Assembly: GCF_000008665.1 (NCBI RefSeq) | Contig: NC_000917.1 | Coordinates: 1,170,001-1,202,000 of the forward strand | From: Archaeoglobus fulgidus DSM 4304 | GTDB taxonomy: Archaea > Halobacteriota > Archaeoglobi > Archaeoglobales > Archaeoglobaceae | Length of the DNA stretch: 32,000 nucleotides | Direction of reading: 5' to 3' | Shown: positions 3,643 to 8,537 of the stretch, piece by piece | Layout of the letters: every line of letters begins with the position of its first letter | How positions within the stretch are numbered: the first letter of the stretch is position 1 | Program-made: the position numbers and the translations under genes | The notes under the pieces: generated by a model | Databases searched by the model: none | Told to the model about the DNA's origin: nothing | Seen by the model: only the letters and a program-made list of their open reading frames with translations

Positions 3643-4833
3643 ATGTACCGTCTGAAGTGCATTGAATGCGGGAAGGAATGGGGCGATGAAAACTACACCT
3701 GCGAGTGTGGAGGGCTTCTGGAGGTTGAAATAGACCTTGATGAGGTTGAAATTGACTTCAGGCTTGATGGAAGCAACATCACGGTCTGGAAGTACCGCTC
3801 TCTCCTCCCCGTTAAAATTGACCCTGTCACGCTGAAGGAGGGTGGAACTCCTCTTTACAGGGCCGAGAGGCTTGAGAAGGAGGTTGGTGTGAGGAGAGTT
3901 TATGTTAAGCACGAAGGTCTGAACCCCTCAGGCTCCTTCAAGGACAGGGGGATGACTGTAGGAGTGACCAAAGCCCTTGAGCTTGGGAGAAAAGCTGTTG
4001 CGTGTGCATCAACAGGCAACACCTCAGCCTCAATGGCGATGTATGCGGCAAAGGCGGGGCTAAAGGCCTACGTCCTGCTTCCTGCAGGCAAGGTGGCGCT
4101 GGGAAAGGTTGCTCAAGCTTTAATGCACGGGGCGAAGGTTATAGGAATCGACGGGAACTTCGATGACGCGCTCAGAATTGTGAGGGAAGTTTGCAGCAGG
4201 GAGCCAATCTACCTCCTGAACTCCATCAACCCCTTCAGGCCTGAGGGGCAGAAGACCATCGCCTACGAGATTGCAGATGAAATTGGTGTGCCCGACAGAG
4301 TTGTTCTGCCTGTGGGGAATGCCGGGAACATATCAGCAATCTACAAGGGATTTAAGGAGCTCAGAGAGGTTGGTTTGACAGATTCAATGCCCAAAATGAC
4401 GGGGATTCAGGCTGAGGGAGCGGCGCCGATTTACAGGGCTTTTAAAGAGGGAAAAGAGGACATAACACCTATGGAGAATCCGGAAACCATAGCGACGGCC
4501 ATAAGAATAGGGAATCCAGTCAGCGCGAAAAAGGCTTTAAGGGCCATCTACAGCACAAACGGGCTGGCAGAGGTTGTTAGCGATTCAGAAATCATCGAGG
4601 CGCAGAAGTTCTTAGCTGCGAAGGAGGGCATAGGGGTTGAGCCAGCCTCAGCGGCAAGCGTTGCGGGGCTGAGAAAGCTCGCAGCCAATGGTATGCTCGA
4701 CCCGGATGAAACCATCGTGTGTGTTGTGACGGGCAATTTACTCAAAGACCCGGAGACTGTTGTGAGGGTTTGCGGAGAGCCGGTGAAAGTTGAGGCGAGC
4801 GTTGAGGCTGTAATCAGGGCGATGAGGGCTTGA
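3643..4833 (+). CDS. thrC: Threonine synthase
   Basis: PLP-lysine motif LNPSGSFKDRGM, an N-terminal Cys4 zinc ribbon (CIECG...CECGG) and 396 aa length are typical of archaeal ThrC. Confidence 0.95.
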   Translation: MYRLKCIECGKEWGDENYTCECGGLLEVEIDLDEVEIDFRLDGSNITVWKYRSLLPVKIDPVTLKEGGTPLYRAERLEKEVGVRRVYVKHEGLNPSGSFKDRGMTVGVTKALELGRKAVACASTGNTSASMAMYAAKAGLKAYVLLPAGKVALGKVAQALMHGAKVIGIDGNFDDALRIVREVCSREPIYLLNSINPFRPEGQKTIAYEIADEIGVPDRVVLPVGNAGNISAIYKGFKELREVGLTDSMPKMTGIQAEGAAPIYRAFKEGKEDITPMENPETIATAIRIGNPVSAKKALRAIYSTNGLAEVVSDSEIIEAQKFLAAKEGIGVEPASAASVAGLRKLAANGMLDPDETIVCVVTGNLLKDPETVVRVCGEPVKVEASVEAVIRAMRA

Positions 4834-5208
4834 AAGCTATGAGATAAAGCCTGTTGAAGATTAGTCTGGATTCCCTTGAGAGCTCTTCCTTAACTATTTT
4901 GAGGAAATTCTGGCGGTATTCCTCACTCAAGGGTTTTGAATAGCATTGTTGGTTCAGGTAGGCTGCTGCAGCACCTGAAAGGAAAACTTTGAAAATTTCA
5001 TCCCCTGAATGGTGAGTTTCAACTCTCAGAATTTTGCAGAATCTGACGTCAAAGCCTGTCCTTTCAAACAGCCTTCGATACTCATTTTCGCTGTCGAGAA
5101 AGAACCACGGGCTTCTGAAGCTTTTGAAAATTTTTGAGGTTCTTTTATCTTTTTCAACAGATCTCAGCGCCTTGAGGAAGGTGGGAGAGTAGTTTTGCGT
5201 TGCGGGGG
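4814..5208 (-). pseudogene. Start-less 3' remnant of a Tam-like class I SAM-dependent methyltransferase gene
   Basis: My hand translation of the minus strand gives a stop-free frame from 5260 down to TGA at 4814-4816. The sequence is ...TQNYSPTFLKALRSVEKDKRTSKIFKSFRSPWFFLDSENEYRRLFERTGFDVRFCKILRVETHHSGDEIFKVFLSGAAAAYLNQQCYSKPLSEEYRQNFLKIVKEELSRESRLIFNRLYLIAFKPSSP*. There is no ATG, GTG or TTG until 38 codons from the end, which is why it is absent from the ORF track. The pattern matches the C-terminal half of trans-aconitate-methyltransferase-like enzymes. The SAM-binding N-terminal half is missing. Confidence 0.55.
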
Positions 5209-5282
5209 ATATATATACAAAACTTAAGTCTGTTTGGATAACCGCATTTAGATTTTGGTATTATTAATTTTATATTTAATTT

Positions 5283-5301
5283 GAATAATAGAAGAAAAGA
5301 T
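5283..5301 (-). terminator. Candidate oligo-T terminator downstream of the pAgo operon
   Basis: The minus strand reads atcttttcttctattattc 32-50 nt after the stop at 5333-5335. Archaeal termination uses T-rich tracts. The surrounding AT-rich background makes this weak evidence. Confidence 0.25.
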
Positions 5302-5332
5302 TAGTTAGCAGAATTATCTTCCGGTTTTCAAA

Positions 5333-6346
5333 TTAAGGTATCATTCTGGTTATTAATGAAACTAGTCCTAAGGCCTTTAAGATTGGAACCACTATCATAA
5401 ATTCTCCAATTTGCCCCAAAGTTATTTTAATTCTTTTTACAGGAAGTTCAATTGGTGGCAATCTTTCTTCAAAATATAAAAAAGAAGTTCCAACTATTAT
5501 CATTAAAATCTGCCCATGTGTTTCGTATGTAATTTTTATGCTTTCAATAGACCATAATTTGATTAACAAAAATAAAAGAGAAGACAGTACAGGAAACCAG
5601 ACTTTCTTATTTATTCTAAGCATAACTTCTTTTTTTATTATTCTGTTTAGCTCGCTTTCTGTGAAAATATATATCCTGTTCTTTTTTAGAAATAGATACA
5701 TCAAAAATACAACCAGATCAAATCTTTCAAATTTATAATTCAATATTTCAGGGATAAACTTTTCTCTTAGACTTTCTTTTTGATTTTCGTACTCCTCTGA
5801 AGTAATTAATTCCCATAACAAATATTCCTTTAAATTTTTAATTTTGGATGTATCTATATTTACATTTATTTTCTCTAAAAAAATTTGCTTACATGCCCAA
5901 TAATAAATTAACTCTTCACCTTGAGTCCTTAAGTACTCTAACAATGATTTAAAATATTCCAATTCACCAATTTTTTTGAGTATATTGAAATTCAATATTG
6001 GCAAAAGTTGAATTATTAGATTTGACTTTTCAGTAATAGGGCTTTTTTCAATTCTATTTTTCAATTTATTCCAATATATTAACAAATCCTCGCCAACAAT
6101 TAAAGCTGACACTAGGGCTGTTAAAATAGTTTCAGAGTCCAATCTTCTTCTTTCCTTAATTTTCTGAGAATAGGATTCCGCTAATTTCTTTACCTTCTTG
6201 TTTTTGTAGAAGCCATGAATGTATGCGCAAAGAACAAATCTAATCTCCTGATTAGAAATTTGTGGGTCAAACTCCCAATTATCAACAACATAATTCATCC
6301 TTTTTTCTATTTCATTTATTTTATCAATATATATTTTATCCATCAT
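5333..6346 (-). CDS. Hypothetical membrane protein; candidate pAgo-associated effector
   Basis: 337 aa from ATG at 6346. That ATG overlaps the Ago stop as ATGA (6343-6346). The N-terminal ~250 aa are K/E/I/L-rich and look helical and soluble. Hydrophobic segments (ORF-track numbering) are [18 protein letters not shown] (252-269), [15 protein letters not shown] (281-295) and [23 protein letters not shown] (314-336), plus [12 protein letters not shown] (212-223). I recognise no family. Confidence 0.7.
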
Positions 6347-7626
6347 AGGAACCACGGATTCGTTTGTAATGAGCGATTCCCTTCTGGGTTTATTGGATAT
6401 CCTCCATAACGATTTACATTTGCTATGATTCCTGCGACCAATTTTGGATAATTAACCGTAACGGGTAGATTTCTACTTCTAAATCCTCTCCAATTCATTT
6501 TAGACAGATAATATATTTCATCCAAAATCTCATGAACATTGTGGTAGTATTCTTCAGAAGTCCAATTATCGCTAACGATCTCAACACTTAATGGTTTTAT
6601 AGGGGTTACCATTTCTAATCCATTTCGTTTAAGATAAGGCTGTAAAAGTGTTAATAAGTATCTTTTAGAACTTAATTTTACTTTTGTCCCTTCATACGGA
6701 TGAAATCTATTGTTAGGGTCTCCCATTACCCAAAATGGATGAGTTTCATTTAAGTGAAGTATAGCATATTTTACGTCTCTTGATACCATTTCTTGTTTTT
6801 TTAACTCTTCAACCGTTTCTTTTAAAATCTTTGTCTCTCCATCTTTCATTTTGGGCCTTTTTCCACTTACATGTAAAGTTAACTTTTCGACATCCCAATC
6901 CGGATTACTTTTTTTGAAACCATATACCACTTTCTTAATTGTACTTTTTAAATATGTTAGATATTCACTACTCGTAACTATTGGTGAAATTTCATTCCAC
7001 AGCATTGTCCCATCTTTCTTGAAGACCATAGCAAAACAAAATAGATTTACATTATCAATACGTGTTGCGCCAGTTCCTATTATAATGTCTGAACCTTTTT
7101 CAGGATCTACATTTAAAATCCAAGGTTTTCCACCAAGTTTTGAAACAAATTGTACCAACAGATTGTCAACATAGAATGTCAAATTTCTGTTAGATAATAT
7201 ATCATATCTCATAAATTGTGATGGGATACTATTTATTAAATACGATTTAAGCTTATAATATAATGGGGTATTATATTCTGGAAGAACGAGCATAATTCCG
7301 TCCACACCCGTATCTATAGCATTATCTACTTGAGATTTGATAGAGTCAAAGTGTGGGGAATCGTAGATAAACTCAGAAATGTTTATATTATGAATATGCC
7401 ACACCTCATCAATTTTAGAACTTATTTGTGATTTCAATTGGTTTATTAAACTTGAAAACTGATTGTTATGGATTAATGCAATTTGATTATACTTTAAGGA
7501 GGGGACTTCATAAGGCCCATAATTCCTTAATCCTTTAATCAACTCACCAGTGTTTGATATTGGTACAGATGCGCCATTCCCTATACGGTATGTCAAACCA
7601 TTTTCAACTATTTTATATTCCATCAT
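6343..7626 (-). CDS. MID-PIWI-only prokaryotic Argonaute (AfPiwi/AfAgo), catalytically inactive
   Basis: 427 aa, [16 protein letters not shown]...[12 protein letters not shown] recognise this as the crystallised A. fulgidus Piwi protein. The 5'-phosphate pocket residues fall at Y123, K127, Q137 and K163 when I count them, and the chain ends in Leu427, whose carboxylate completes the metal site. The position of the first catalytic Asp reads IIIGTGAT rather than GxDV. GAGGTG at 7634-7639 lies 7 nt upstream of the ATG. Confidence 0.97.
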
Positions 7627-8363
7627 TGTTTGACACCTCTACTATTTCAAGAGGCTTAAAAACAATCTTAATTTCTCCATCAGGAGTGCTAAAAGTCTTT
7701 TCATCTTCTGAAGAACCGAAGGCTTCTTTTAAAAGCCCTGTGAGAAGGTTAAACTTATCCCGCATAGCTGTTGCATATTTTTTACCTTCAGGTGTAAGAT
7801 GTCTATGGAATGCTTGAACAGACACCCATATTTTCTTTTTGACACTTTCCCCGTACTTATCTTTAATCTTCGTATATGAGATTCGCTGGTTATTTTCTCG
7901 ATCAAGGATATTTATTTTTAGATCAACAATAATTCCAAAATTTGTATTTTGCCAATGATGAACATTAATTATTAACTCGTATTGTAGCTTTATTATATTG
8001 GAGAACTCATAGTTTTCAGTAATTTCCTTAACTAATCTCAAAGTTGATCCCAACTCTTTTAATTGCCATGGTGTAGCTATATTCTCTGACAATATATCAA
8101 GAAGATACTTTCGAAATATTTTTCCAAACAAAGCATTACTATTATCTATTTCATCAAATTCGTTTTCTATGCCATAACCATATAAATAAATTAAATCTCC
8201 GATCCTTTTTTTCCATTTACCTGGTAAAAATTCCTCATAATATGGAATTGCTGATACCTTTATCGTTTCTGGATAGTTAACGATGGGGTAAATATTAATA
8301 TAGAATTCCTGAACTTCTTACATCTGGAGTGTTCACATTACCCGAACTGAGTGGTATTTCCAT
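7613..8363 (-). CDS. Candidate Ago N-L1-L2-like partner protein (about 249 aa), interrupted by an apparent 1-nt frameshift near its 5' end
   Basis: ATG at 8363 is preceded by AGGAGG (8371-8376) with a 7-nt spacer. That frame gives MEIPLSSGNVNTPDVRSSGILY and then TAA at 8295-8297. The +1 frame is open from 8317 and reads EVQEFYINIYPIVNYPETIKVSAIPYYEEFLPGKWKKRIGDLIYLYGYGIENEFDEIDNSNALFGKIF..., continuing into the 172-aa track ORF, which starts only at a TTG at 8131. The stop at 7613 lies 14 nt inside the Ago ORF. The partner role is inferred from operon position, size and the beta-rich N-terminus. Confidence 0.7.
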
Positions 8364-8370
8364 GATAACT

Positions 8371-8376
8371 CCTCCT
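8371..8376 (-). promoter_or_regulatory. Shine-Dalgarno AGGAGG for the first gene of the pAgo operon
   Basis: The plus strand reads cctcct at 8371-8376, which is AGGAGG on the minus strand, 7 nt upstream of ATG 8363. It stands out in an AT-rich context. Confidence 0.6.
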
Positions 8377-8410
8377 AAAACTTGTTTTCATCACATCAAC
8401 TTAGGGTTTG

Positions 8411-8430
8411 GCTAAATAAATTTTAATCTT
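8411..8430 (-). promoter_or_regulatory. Candidate TATA box for the pAgo operon
   Basis: The minus strand reads aagattaaaatttatttagc, ~50-65 nt upstream of ATG 8363. This would give a ~30-nt leader containing the SD. The AT-rich background makes the call tentative. Confidence 0.3.
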
Positions 8431-8507
8431 GGACTGGAGTCTTATTAAATTGCAATTCCAGCTAAGTTAAAAATGGTTATATTTATTTTTTATCCTCAAA
8501 AAATTAC

Positions 8508-8517
8508 CTTTATTTAA
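8508..8517 (+). promoter_or_regulatory. TATA box for the secreted Cys-rich protein gene
   Basis: ctttatttaa is centred ~25 nt upstream of ATG 8538, a leaderless arrangement. Confidence 0.45.
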
Positions 8518-8537
8518 TTCACCAACAAGTTTTAACC

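Follow-up and report, generated by a model that had tools for sequence, protein, structure and literature searches.

SiAga2 (M164_1612), a protein with two transmembrane (TM) helices from the Sulfolobus islandicus SiAgo-Aga1-Aga2 system, kills by membrane depolarisation (10.1101/2021.12.09.471704; PMC11788926) and, in a form without its C-terminal TM region, was shown to bind SiAgo-Aga1 only when that complex held guide RNA as well as target DNA (PMC11788926). Killing by the EaBPAM system requires the TM region of EabAgaM, which is about 100 aa long (PMC10620215), and in the EcBPAN system the nuclease effector EcbAgaN docks on target-bound EcAgo through its N-terminal helical domain, a contact that relieves autoinhibition (PMC13535254). 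Here, the AF_1317 gene of Archaeoglobus fulgidus DSM 4304 was compared with these systems. The window analysed is a stretch of 32,000 nt (positions 1,170,001 to 1,202,000 of NC_000917.1), and coordinates given below are positions within it. AF_1317 lies directly downstream of the gene for the prokaryotic Argonaute (pAgo) AfAgo, and by analogy with the described systems we favour the reading that it encodes the effector subunit, likely a membrane effector, of a split long-B Argonaute system made up of AfAgo-N, AfAgo and AF_1317.

The operon was described by Manakova et al. (NAR 2024, PMC10954474), who reported that the island is low in GC and that the upstream gene is frameshifted, and found that restoration of this gene yields AfAgo-N, a partner of AfAgo with the N-L1-L2 domains. 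The same authors described Af1317 as 'similar to SiAga2' and as a putative transmembrane effector, and left its function for future work. They placed it among those neighbours of long-B pAgos in which 'a conserved alpha-helical domain' is fused to TM, TIR, HEPN or PD-(D/E)XK modules, and reported a putative TM domain in it from DeepTMHMM (PMC10954474). A conformational switch of the beta-relay type is known from fAfAgo, and control of effector binding has been proposed as its role (10.1101/2025.04.08.647717). As both the gene and the idea are in the literature, the effector reading of AF_1317 is already known. What is added here is the compactness and isolation of its family, the lack of detectable homology to the bAgaM and bAgaN families, and the finding that the published similarity score to SiAga2 (93.5 with Needle) is in the range of chance.

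The AF_1317 gene and its homologues

The island and the three overlapping minus-strand genes in it have the following positions:

5226..8530 (edges approximate): low-GC island with the three-gene cassette (composition profile, GC in 60-nt steps, GC at third codon positions and codon usage)
5333..6346, minus strand: AF_1317 coding sequence, 337 aa from ATG, with the stop codon TAA at 5333-5335 (open reading frame list and reading of the sequence)
6343..6346, minus strand: ATGA overlap of the AF_1317 start codon and the AfAgo stop codon (reading of the sequence; most related loci have the same 4-nt overlap)
6343..7626, minus strand: AfAgo (AF1318), a MID-PIWI protein of 427 aa (Pfam Piwi 4.5e-72; PADLOC pAgo 4.7e-60)
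7613..8363, minus strand: AfAgo-N, the N-L1-L2 partner of AfAgo, split by a frameshift with the break near 8296-8305 (reading frames compared with relatives)

The AF_1317 frame is intact and has the position and length given in an earlier note made on this DNA from its sequence alone. An alternative start codon, GTG at 6355, would give a protein of 340 aa, and an exact-sequence look-up identified the product as AF_1317, with the entries O28952 (UniProt, 340 aa) and WP_048064368 (RefSeq, 337 aa), annotated as 'uncharacterized protein'. An ATGA start/stop overlap is the classic arrangement for translational coupling, and from its sequence AF_1317 is predicted to be translationally coupled to AfAgo. 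The 427-aa PIWI protein is AF1318, matching a PDB sequence over its full length (1w9h, E = 5.3e-293), and is catalytically inactive according to the cited literature.

AF_1317 had been called an orphan, which it is not. A search of 5.8 billion clustered proteins yielded 27 full-length homologue clusters, 330–360 aa long and 42–66% identical. Their alignment contains 34 invariant columns, and the conserved motifs include KEYLLWE in the soluble domain. When 1.84 billion representatives were searched exhaustively with a HMMER profile, 14 hits were obtained, all of them members of this family or fragments of members. Judged by these searches, the family is real, yet small, compact and isolated in sequence. 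The accompanying statement that the protein matches no family stands for curated families as well as for PDB and BFVD: no Pfam family scored above threshold, there were 0 PADLOC and 0 NCBIfam matches, and no PDB sequence-profile, Foldseek-PDB or Foldseek-BFVD match was found below an E value of about 0.1 to 1. The Pfam family SHOCT_2 reached 13.9 bits against a cut-off of 24 (E 0.061) and was dismissed. A scan of genome contigs returned one locus in a metagenome-assembled genome, A. fulgidus itself not being among the results, and a scan of viral contigs returned no copy of AF_1317.

Genomic context was established in two ways. In an exact-sequence look-up of seven family members, each was found directly after a gene for a Piwi-domain protein, mostly with a 4-nt overlap, and wherever the contig extends far enough this gene is preceded by one encoding 242–249 aa. 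The three A. fulgidus cassette proteins were also used as tblastn queries against 28 fetched loci, 26 of which include upstream DNA. The start of the effector gene coincided with the end of an AfAgo homologue in all 26, and Ago-N was found upstream of the AfAgo homologue wherever the contig reaches that far. A feature of the functional class of pAgo-associated TM effectors (SiAga2, bAgaM), namely a shared operon with a catalytically inactive pAgo in which the position of the effector gene is conserved, therefore holds for AF_1317. Among 11 distinct loci, Ago identity ranged from 60 to 73% and effector identity from 41 to 62%, and the two were strongly correlated (r = 0.95), indicating that the cassette diversifies as a unit and that the effector does so fastest.

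The composition of AF_1317 is that of the island. The island, of about 3.3 kb and about 30% GC, is set in sequence of about 51% GC. The GC content of AF_1317 was measured at 27.3% and not the roughly 22% given previously, compared with 32.3% for AfAgo and 50.7% for the host flanks. GC at third codon positions is 0.26 in each of the three island genes and 0.59–0.66 in six host genes. Codon frequencies of AF_1317 correlate at 0.81–0.83 with those of Ago and Ago-N and at about 0.2 with those of host genes. Both measures bear out the claim that its codon usage is island-like and not host-like, and context and analogy support acquisition of AF_1317 together with the Ago island.

Architecture and predicted topology

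A structure was predicted with AlphaFold2 (AF2) from the family alignment, with a mean predicted local distance difference test (pLDDT) score of 80.3 and a predicted template modelling (pTM) score of 0.63. Together with Kyte–Doolittle hydropathy averaged over 19 or 15 residues (KD19, KD15) and Wimley-White (WW) octanol energies, it defines the following parts of the protein:

5681..6346, minus strand: N-terminal all-alpha soluble domain, residues 1-222, 12 helices (AF2 pLDDT ~90; conserved motifs)
5603..5680, minus strand: basic juxtamembrane helix, residues 223-248, continuous with the first TM helix (AF2 helix 230-266)
5549..5602, minus strand: hydrophobic helix 1, residues 249-266 (KD19 1.90; WW octanol ~-4.5 to -15 kcal/mol, favourable in 25 of 27 members)
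5468..5518, minus strand: hydrophobic helix 2, residues 277-293 (AF2 helix 274-295; family-mean KD15 2.29; WW -2 to -9 kcal/mol)
5417..5467, minus strand: basic loop with a predicted beta-hairpin, residues 294-310 (AF2 strands 300-303 and 306-309; family mean 4.1 K+R)
5348..5416, minus strand: hydrophobic helix 3, residues 311-333 (KD19 1.98; WW -5 to -15 kcal/mol)

The three C-terminal hydrophobic segments that had been noticed between nt 5348 and 5602 were thus found, at approximately residues 249-267, 277-293 and 311-336. A fourth, weaker segment had also been proposed, and while residues 211-222 are indeed hydrophobic, they form a confident AF2 helix (pLDDT ~92) inside the soluble domain and not a membrane segment. 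In the C-terminal part, AF2 places a helix at 230-266, a helix at 274-295, a beta-hairpin at 300-309 and helices at 310-325 and 330-335. The helix at 230-266 has a basic amphipathic start, with a family mean of 6.7 K+R against 2.9 D+E at residues 229-248, and runs into hydrophobic helix 1, where the family-mean hydropathy peaks. An invariant KKVWFP motif precedes helix 1 (K248, V249, F251, P252 and F259 are invariant), and helix 2 ends in an invariant FEE-LP motif. Polar residues are conserved in or at the ends of the hydrophobic helices (K263, Q279, G286 and E293).

The C-terminal tail takes two forms among the 27 members. In 20 of them (~337 aa) a single apolar helix follows the basic loop, and the other seven (347–350 aa) carry an unrelated tail with two apolar helices (...IISIIGGIIIWLFTE), which probably gives four spans. 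The presence of an alternative tail in seven of 27 members suggests modular exchange, the last membrane element appearing to be exchangeable.

The protein is rich in K, E, I, L and N as claimed (measured L 13.9%, I 13.6%, K 10.7%, E 10.1%, N 5.3%), and I and L together make up 27.5% of residues. Such a composition could by itself generate apolar stretches, and the protein might be soluble, with C-terminal apolar helices that form an oligomerisation or Ago-binding core and a hydrophobicity that is a by-product of AT-rich, I/L/F-rich coding. When the AF_1317 sequence was shuffled, 9% of the shuffles had three or more segments with a KD of 1.6 or higher and 38% reached the same maximum, and the hydropathy peaks of the single sequence are within chance for an I/L-rich composition. 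The buried helix at residues 73-91 of the soluble domain scores as high as a 'TM' segment. Helix 2 is short, with an apolar core of 13–15 residues, and is weak in the single sequence, and the pLDDT of the C-terminal part of the model is 57–76. Against a soluble protein, the three hydrophobic segments are conserved in position in all 27 members despite identities of 42–66%, with WW octanol energies down to -15 kcal/mol, and the alternative tail again consists of long apolar helices. The equally AT-biased AfAgo and Ago-N, with the same codon bias, peak at a KD19 of only 1.08 and 0.57, respectively. Within AF_1317, the grand average of hydropathy is +0.92 for residues 248-337 and -0.30 for the rest. 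It is because the hydrophobic signal is conserved across the whole family and concentrated at the C-terminus that it is convincing. The putative TM domain reported from DeepTMHMM (PMC10954474) and the flanking charges, which follow the positive-inside rule, also speak against a soluble protein, and we consider this explanation very unlikely.

The family-mean net charge is +3.9 before helix 1, -0.8 in loop 1, +1.2 in loop 2 and -1.0 in the tail. This pattern fits the positive-inside rule for a three-span protein with its N-terminus inside and its C-terminus outside, and suggests this N-in/C-out topology for AF_1317, in which the basic loop at 294-310 would be cytoplasmic. AF_1317 is most likely an integral membrane protein with a cytoplasmic all-alpha domain, a basic helix and three membrane-spanning C-terminal helices. 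The arrangement previously claimed, a soluble domain followed by a C-terminal membrane bundle, agrees with the AF2 domain and with the conserved hydrophobic helices. These helices, their WW energies and the charge pattern also agree with the predicted C-terminal TM region that marks pAgo-associated TM effectors.

Comparison with SiAga2, bAgaM and bAgaN

The A. fulgidus and S. islandicus systems are alike in being archaeal and in having three parts: a MID-PIWI Ago, a separate partner of the N-L1-L2 type, and a protein that joins a soluble domain to C-terminal TM helices. The SiAga2 family is further marked by a basic pocket in the soluble domain for anionic lipid head groups; in AF_1317, the basic feature legible from the sequence is the juxtamembrane helix. 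They differ in that SiAga2 has two predicted TM helices whereas AF_1317 has three (four in the sub-family), and in gene order, as by locus tags SiAga2 adjoins Aga1 (M164_1613) and then Ago (M164_1614), while AF_1317 adjoins Ago directly. The exhaustive profile search started from the AF_1317 family did not retrieve the SiAga2 family, and a phmmer search of PDB with AfAgo did not reach SiAgo. The only published measure of similarity between AF_1317 and SiAga2 is the Needle score of 93.5. To calibrate it, Needle was emulated (BLOSUM62, gap penalties of 10 and 0.5, free end gaps) with AF_1317 against shuffled sequences and against AfAgo. AF_1317 scored 83.8 +/- 12.9 against shuffles of the same composition, 21% of which reached 93.5 or more, and 71 against the unrelated AfAgo. 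The published score, being within the chance range, is not evidence of homology.

The bAgaM proteins (og_100; EabAgaM, BPAM system) resemble AF_1317 in being encoded directly downstream of a catalytically inactive long-B pAgo, in their length of about 300 aa and in having an N-terminal soluble part and a C-terminal TM region (PMC10620215), and differ in that their pAgo is single-chain whereas AfAgo is split. In bAgaN (EcbAgaN, BPAN system, structure 23wq) the C-terminal part is a PD-(D/E)XK nuclease in place of the membrane helices of AF_1317. The sequences of EabAgaM and EcbAgaN were taken from the supplement of PMC10620215, their families were collected (296 and 708 hits, respectively), and profiles were built and compared using hhalign. 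A predicted model of EcbAgaN had a pLDDT of 44.6 and was not used.

The 27 clusters of the AF_1317 family share no hits with the bAgaM list, in which the named hits are from Bacteroidota, or with the bAgaN list. The AF_1317 profile gave a probability of 0.2% against the EabAgaM sequence and of 1.0% (E 0.054) against the bAgaM profile. A co-linear match of 80 columns between the TM regions of AF_1317 and bAgaM scored 18.0, against 19.3 for the reversed profile and 15.1 +/- 2.1 for column-shuffled ones, and was rejected. No homology between AF_1317 and bAgaM was detected in profile-sequence and profile-profile hhalign comparisons with these controls. For EcbAgaN the probability was 0.03% and for the bAgaN profile 0.2%, with controls equal or higher, and hhalign found no similarity between the N-terminal domain profiles of AF_1317 and bAgaN.

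The published accounts of this N-terminal region conflict. Manakova et al. attribute a common alpha-helical N-terminal region to the long-B effectors, Af1317 among them (PMC10954474), whereas according to Liu et al. the N-terminal domain of bAgaN is absent from TM and NADase effectors (PMC13535254). The profile comparisons made here, as far as sequence can tell, side with the latter.

A more general likeness exists to the membrane effectors of cyclic oligonucleotide-based antiphage signalling systems (CBASS), type III CRISPR (Csx23) and other abortive-infection systems, where a cytoplasmic receiver domain controls membrane-disrupting TM helices. These respond to a small molecule, whereas the likely input of AF_1317 is contact with a nucleic-acid-loaded Argonaute, and AF_1317 had no PADLOC or Foldseek-PDB match to them.

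We tentatively propose, as a possibility that falls somewhat short of even, that the AF_1317-like proteins make up a family of Argonaute-coupled membrane effectors in their own right, with no relation in sequence, and perhaps none in fold, to SiAga2 and bAgaM, and with an Ago-docking domain of their own and an exchangeable tail contributing to a total of three or four helices. If this is true, membrane-disrupting partners were recruited by inactive Argonautes on at least three separate occasions, and the label 'homologue of SiAga2' is wrong. As the family is small and isolated in sequence, a transfer of properties from SiAga2 or bAgaM by homology is not justified.

Function of AF_1317

The reading of AF_1317 as the effector of the AfAgo system is built on a real gene, a conserved family, strict linkage to and co-diversification with the Ago pair, and conserved hydrophobic helices; from these and from the described systems we infer its topology, its binding to Ago and its toxicity. 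In the mechanism that we envisage, an AfAgo-N/AfAgo heterodimer loaded with guide RNA binds complementary invader DNA, a step that published in vitro work has shown. A conformational switch in the PIWI lobe would then create a surface for the cytoplasmic domain of AF_1317, as suggested by SiAgo-Aga1/SiAga2 and EcAgo/EcbAgaN. This contact would lift autoinhibition or drive oligomerisation of the AF_1317 membrane helices, and the membrane would be depolarised or permeabilised, leading to death or dormancy of the infected cell, i.e. abortive infection, as judged from SiAga2 and EabAgaM. Residues 1-222 would serve as a docking or regulatory module for the Ago complex.

The earlier note had also pictured AF_1317 as an abortive-infection membrane effector, and synteny with Ago, the conserved helices and the analogy with SiAga2 and EabAgaM are in keeping with this, pore formation or depolarisation being the part that would have to be carried over from these analogues. 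Its term 'sensor-gated' is misleading if the soluble domain is meant to sense the invader. Where such systems have been characterised, sensing is done by the Ago/Ago-N complex, and the effector's soluble domain acts as a docking or regulatory module.

An alternative is that AF_1317 is a membrane tether, which anchors, recruits or scaffolds AfAgo-N/AfAgo at the cytoplasmic membrane, for instance at entry points of foreign DNA, and does no damage to the membrane. Strict synteny, coupling and a cytoplasmic helical domain joined to membrane helices fit a tether too, and no catalytic or pore motif was found in AF_1317 using Pfam, PADLOC, NCBIfam and Foldseek-PDB. However, both of the pAgo-associated TM proteins that have been studied experimentally are killing modules (10.1101/2021.12.09.471704; PMC10620215), and the same downstream slot of related long-B pAgos holds nucleases, TIR, HEPN and Sir2 (PMC10954474; PMC10620215), which suggests that it is a slot for toxic effectors. 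The conserved K263, Q279 and E293 in or beside the helices also suit an oligomeric channel more than a passive anchor. We therefore regard a tether as unlikely.

Several points weigh against the membrane-effector reading. In addition to the short second helix, the low confidence of the C-terminal model and the chance-level hydropathy of the single sequence, no paper with experiments on AF_1317 was found in the literature. With no sequence homology to bAgaM or bAgaN detected and SiAga2 not retrieved, the mechanism is drawn from analogies of architecture and genomic context and not from homology. In pull-downs, EabAgaM was not recovered with its Ago (PMC10620215), indicating that direct docking is not universal, and the frameshift in Ago-N means that the system may be inactive in strain DSM 4304.

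The reading matters as few prokaryotic Argonautes have been studied as much as AfAgo, and its biological output has an obvious candidate in AF_1317. Should the model hold, the full system would be a thermophilic, three-protein, nucleic-acid-guided membrane switch, and would offer a tractable structural case for the opening of a membrane effector by a target-bound Argonaute, which is unsolved even for SiAga2. Natural tail variants with three and four helices are at hand for comparison, and as Ago-N is frameshifted in DSM 4304, experiments will need a restored Ago-N.

State of the operon in DSM 4304

The first frame of AfAgo-N comprises 22 codons (8363-8295), starts with an ATG preceded by a good AGGAGG ribosome-binding site and ends ...SSGILY before a stop codon. 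The second has 231 open codons (8305-7613) and begins FYINIYP. Relatives of Ago-N read unbroken (...SSGVLYINIYP...) across the position of the break. A 2-nt (TA) deletion in the DSM 4304 gene has been reported (PMC10954474), and the split observed here agrees with it.

The broken frame near 8296-8305 (PMC10954474) raises a further explanation, which concerns activity and not identity, namely that the cassette is a decaying relic in DSM 4304 and that AF_1317 has no current function there. A toxic effector with a broken sensor would be neutral or silenced, consistent with such a state. Arguing against decay, the frames of AF_1317 and AfAgo are intact and AF_1317 keeps all 34 residues that are invariant in its family, and the small non-messenger RNA reported from the AfAgo operon shows that it is transcribed (PMC10954474). 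We give little weight to the relic explanation.

Other features of the locus

AF_1317 read from the GTG at 6355 begins MVPMMD, and this stretch overlaps the C-terminal AfAgo codons TGG TTC CTA TGA. The N-termini of bAgaM and bAgaN are MV[SP][IL]E and MVP[VI]EK, respectively, with M1 and V2 invariant in both, and AF_1317, bAgaM and bAgaN can all start with MV(P/S). Possible reasons are an overlap with the conserved C-terminus of Ago, an N-terminal motif common to the three families, or coincidence.

Marks of an integration site at the island edges, i.e. a tRNA gene or flanking direct repeats, were looked for and none were found. Abutting the edge of the low-GC island on the minus strand is an open frame of ~137 codons at 4814-5225 with host-like GC (~45%) and no start codon, which ends ...RLYLIAFKPSSP before the stop. 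It had no Pfam match and resembles the leftover 3' end of a host gene that was interrupted when the island inserted. Downstream of AF_1317 there is an imperfect 23-nt inverted repeat (5276-5336), with 78% complementarity and 15 nt between its arms, the right one overlapping the stop codon of AF_1317. The repeat has T-rich tracts next to it and may be the transcription terminator of the operon.

The flanks of the cassette vary among loci and often consist of defence or mobile genes, including the type I restriction-modification (R-M) genes hsdM/hsdS (four contexts), Abi_C, DUF1156/DUF499, and IS110 and IS240 transposases. Defence genes flank the cassette upstream in loci L001, L004, L010 and L013 and downstream in L003 and L013, and these surroundings look like defence islands. 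The cassette often directly follows the type I R-M genes hsdM and hsdS, with the end of hsdS overlapping the start of Ago-N, and in other loci adjoins DUF1156/DUF499 or Abi_C genes. There may be a recurrent linkage of R-M and pAgo.

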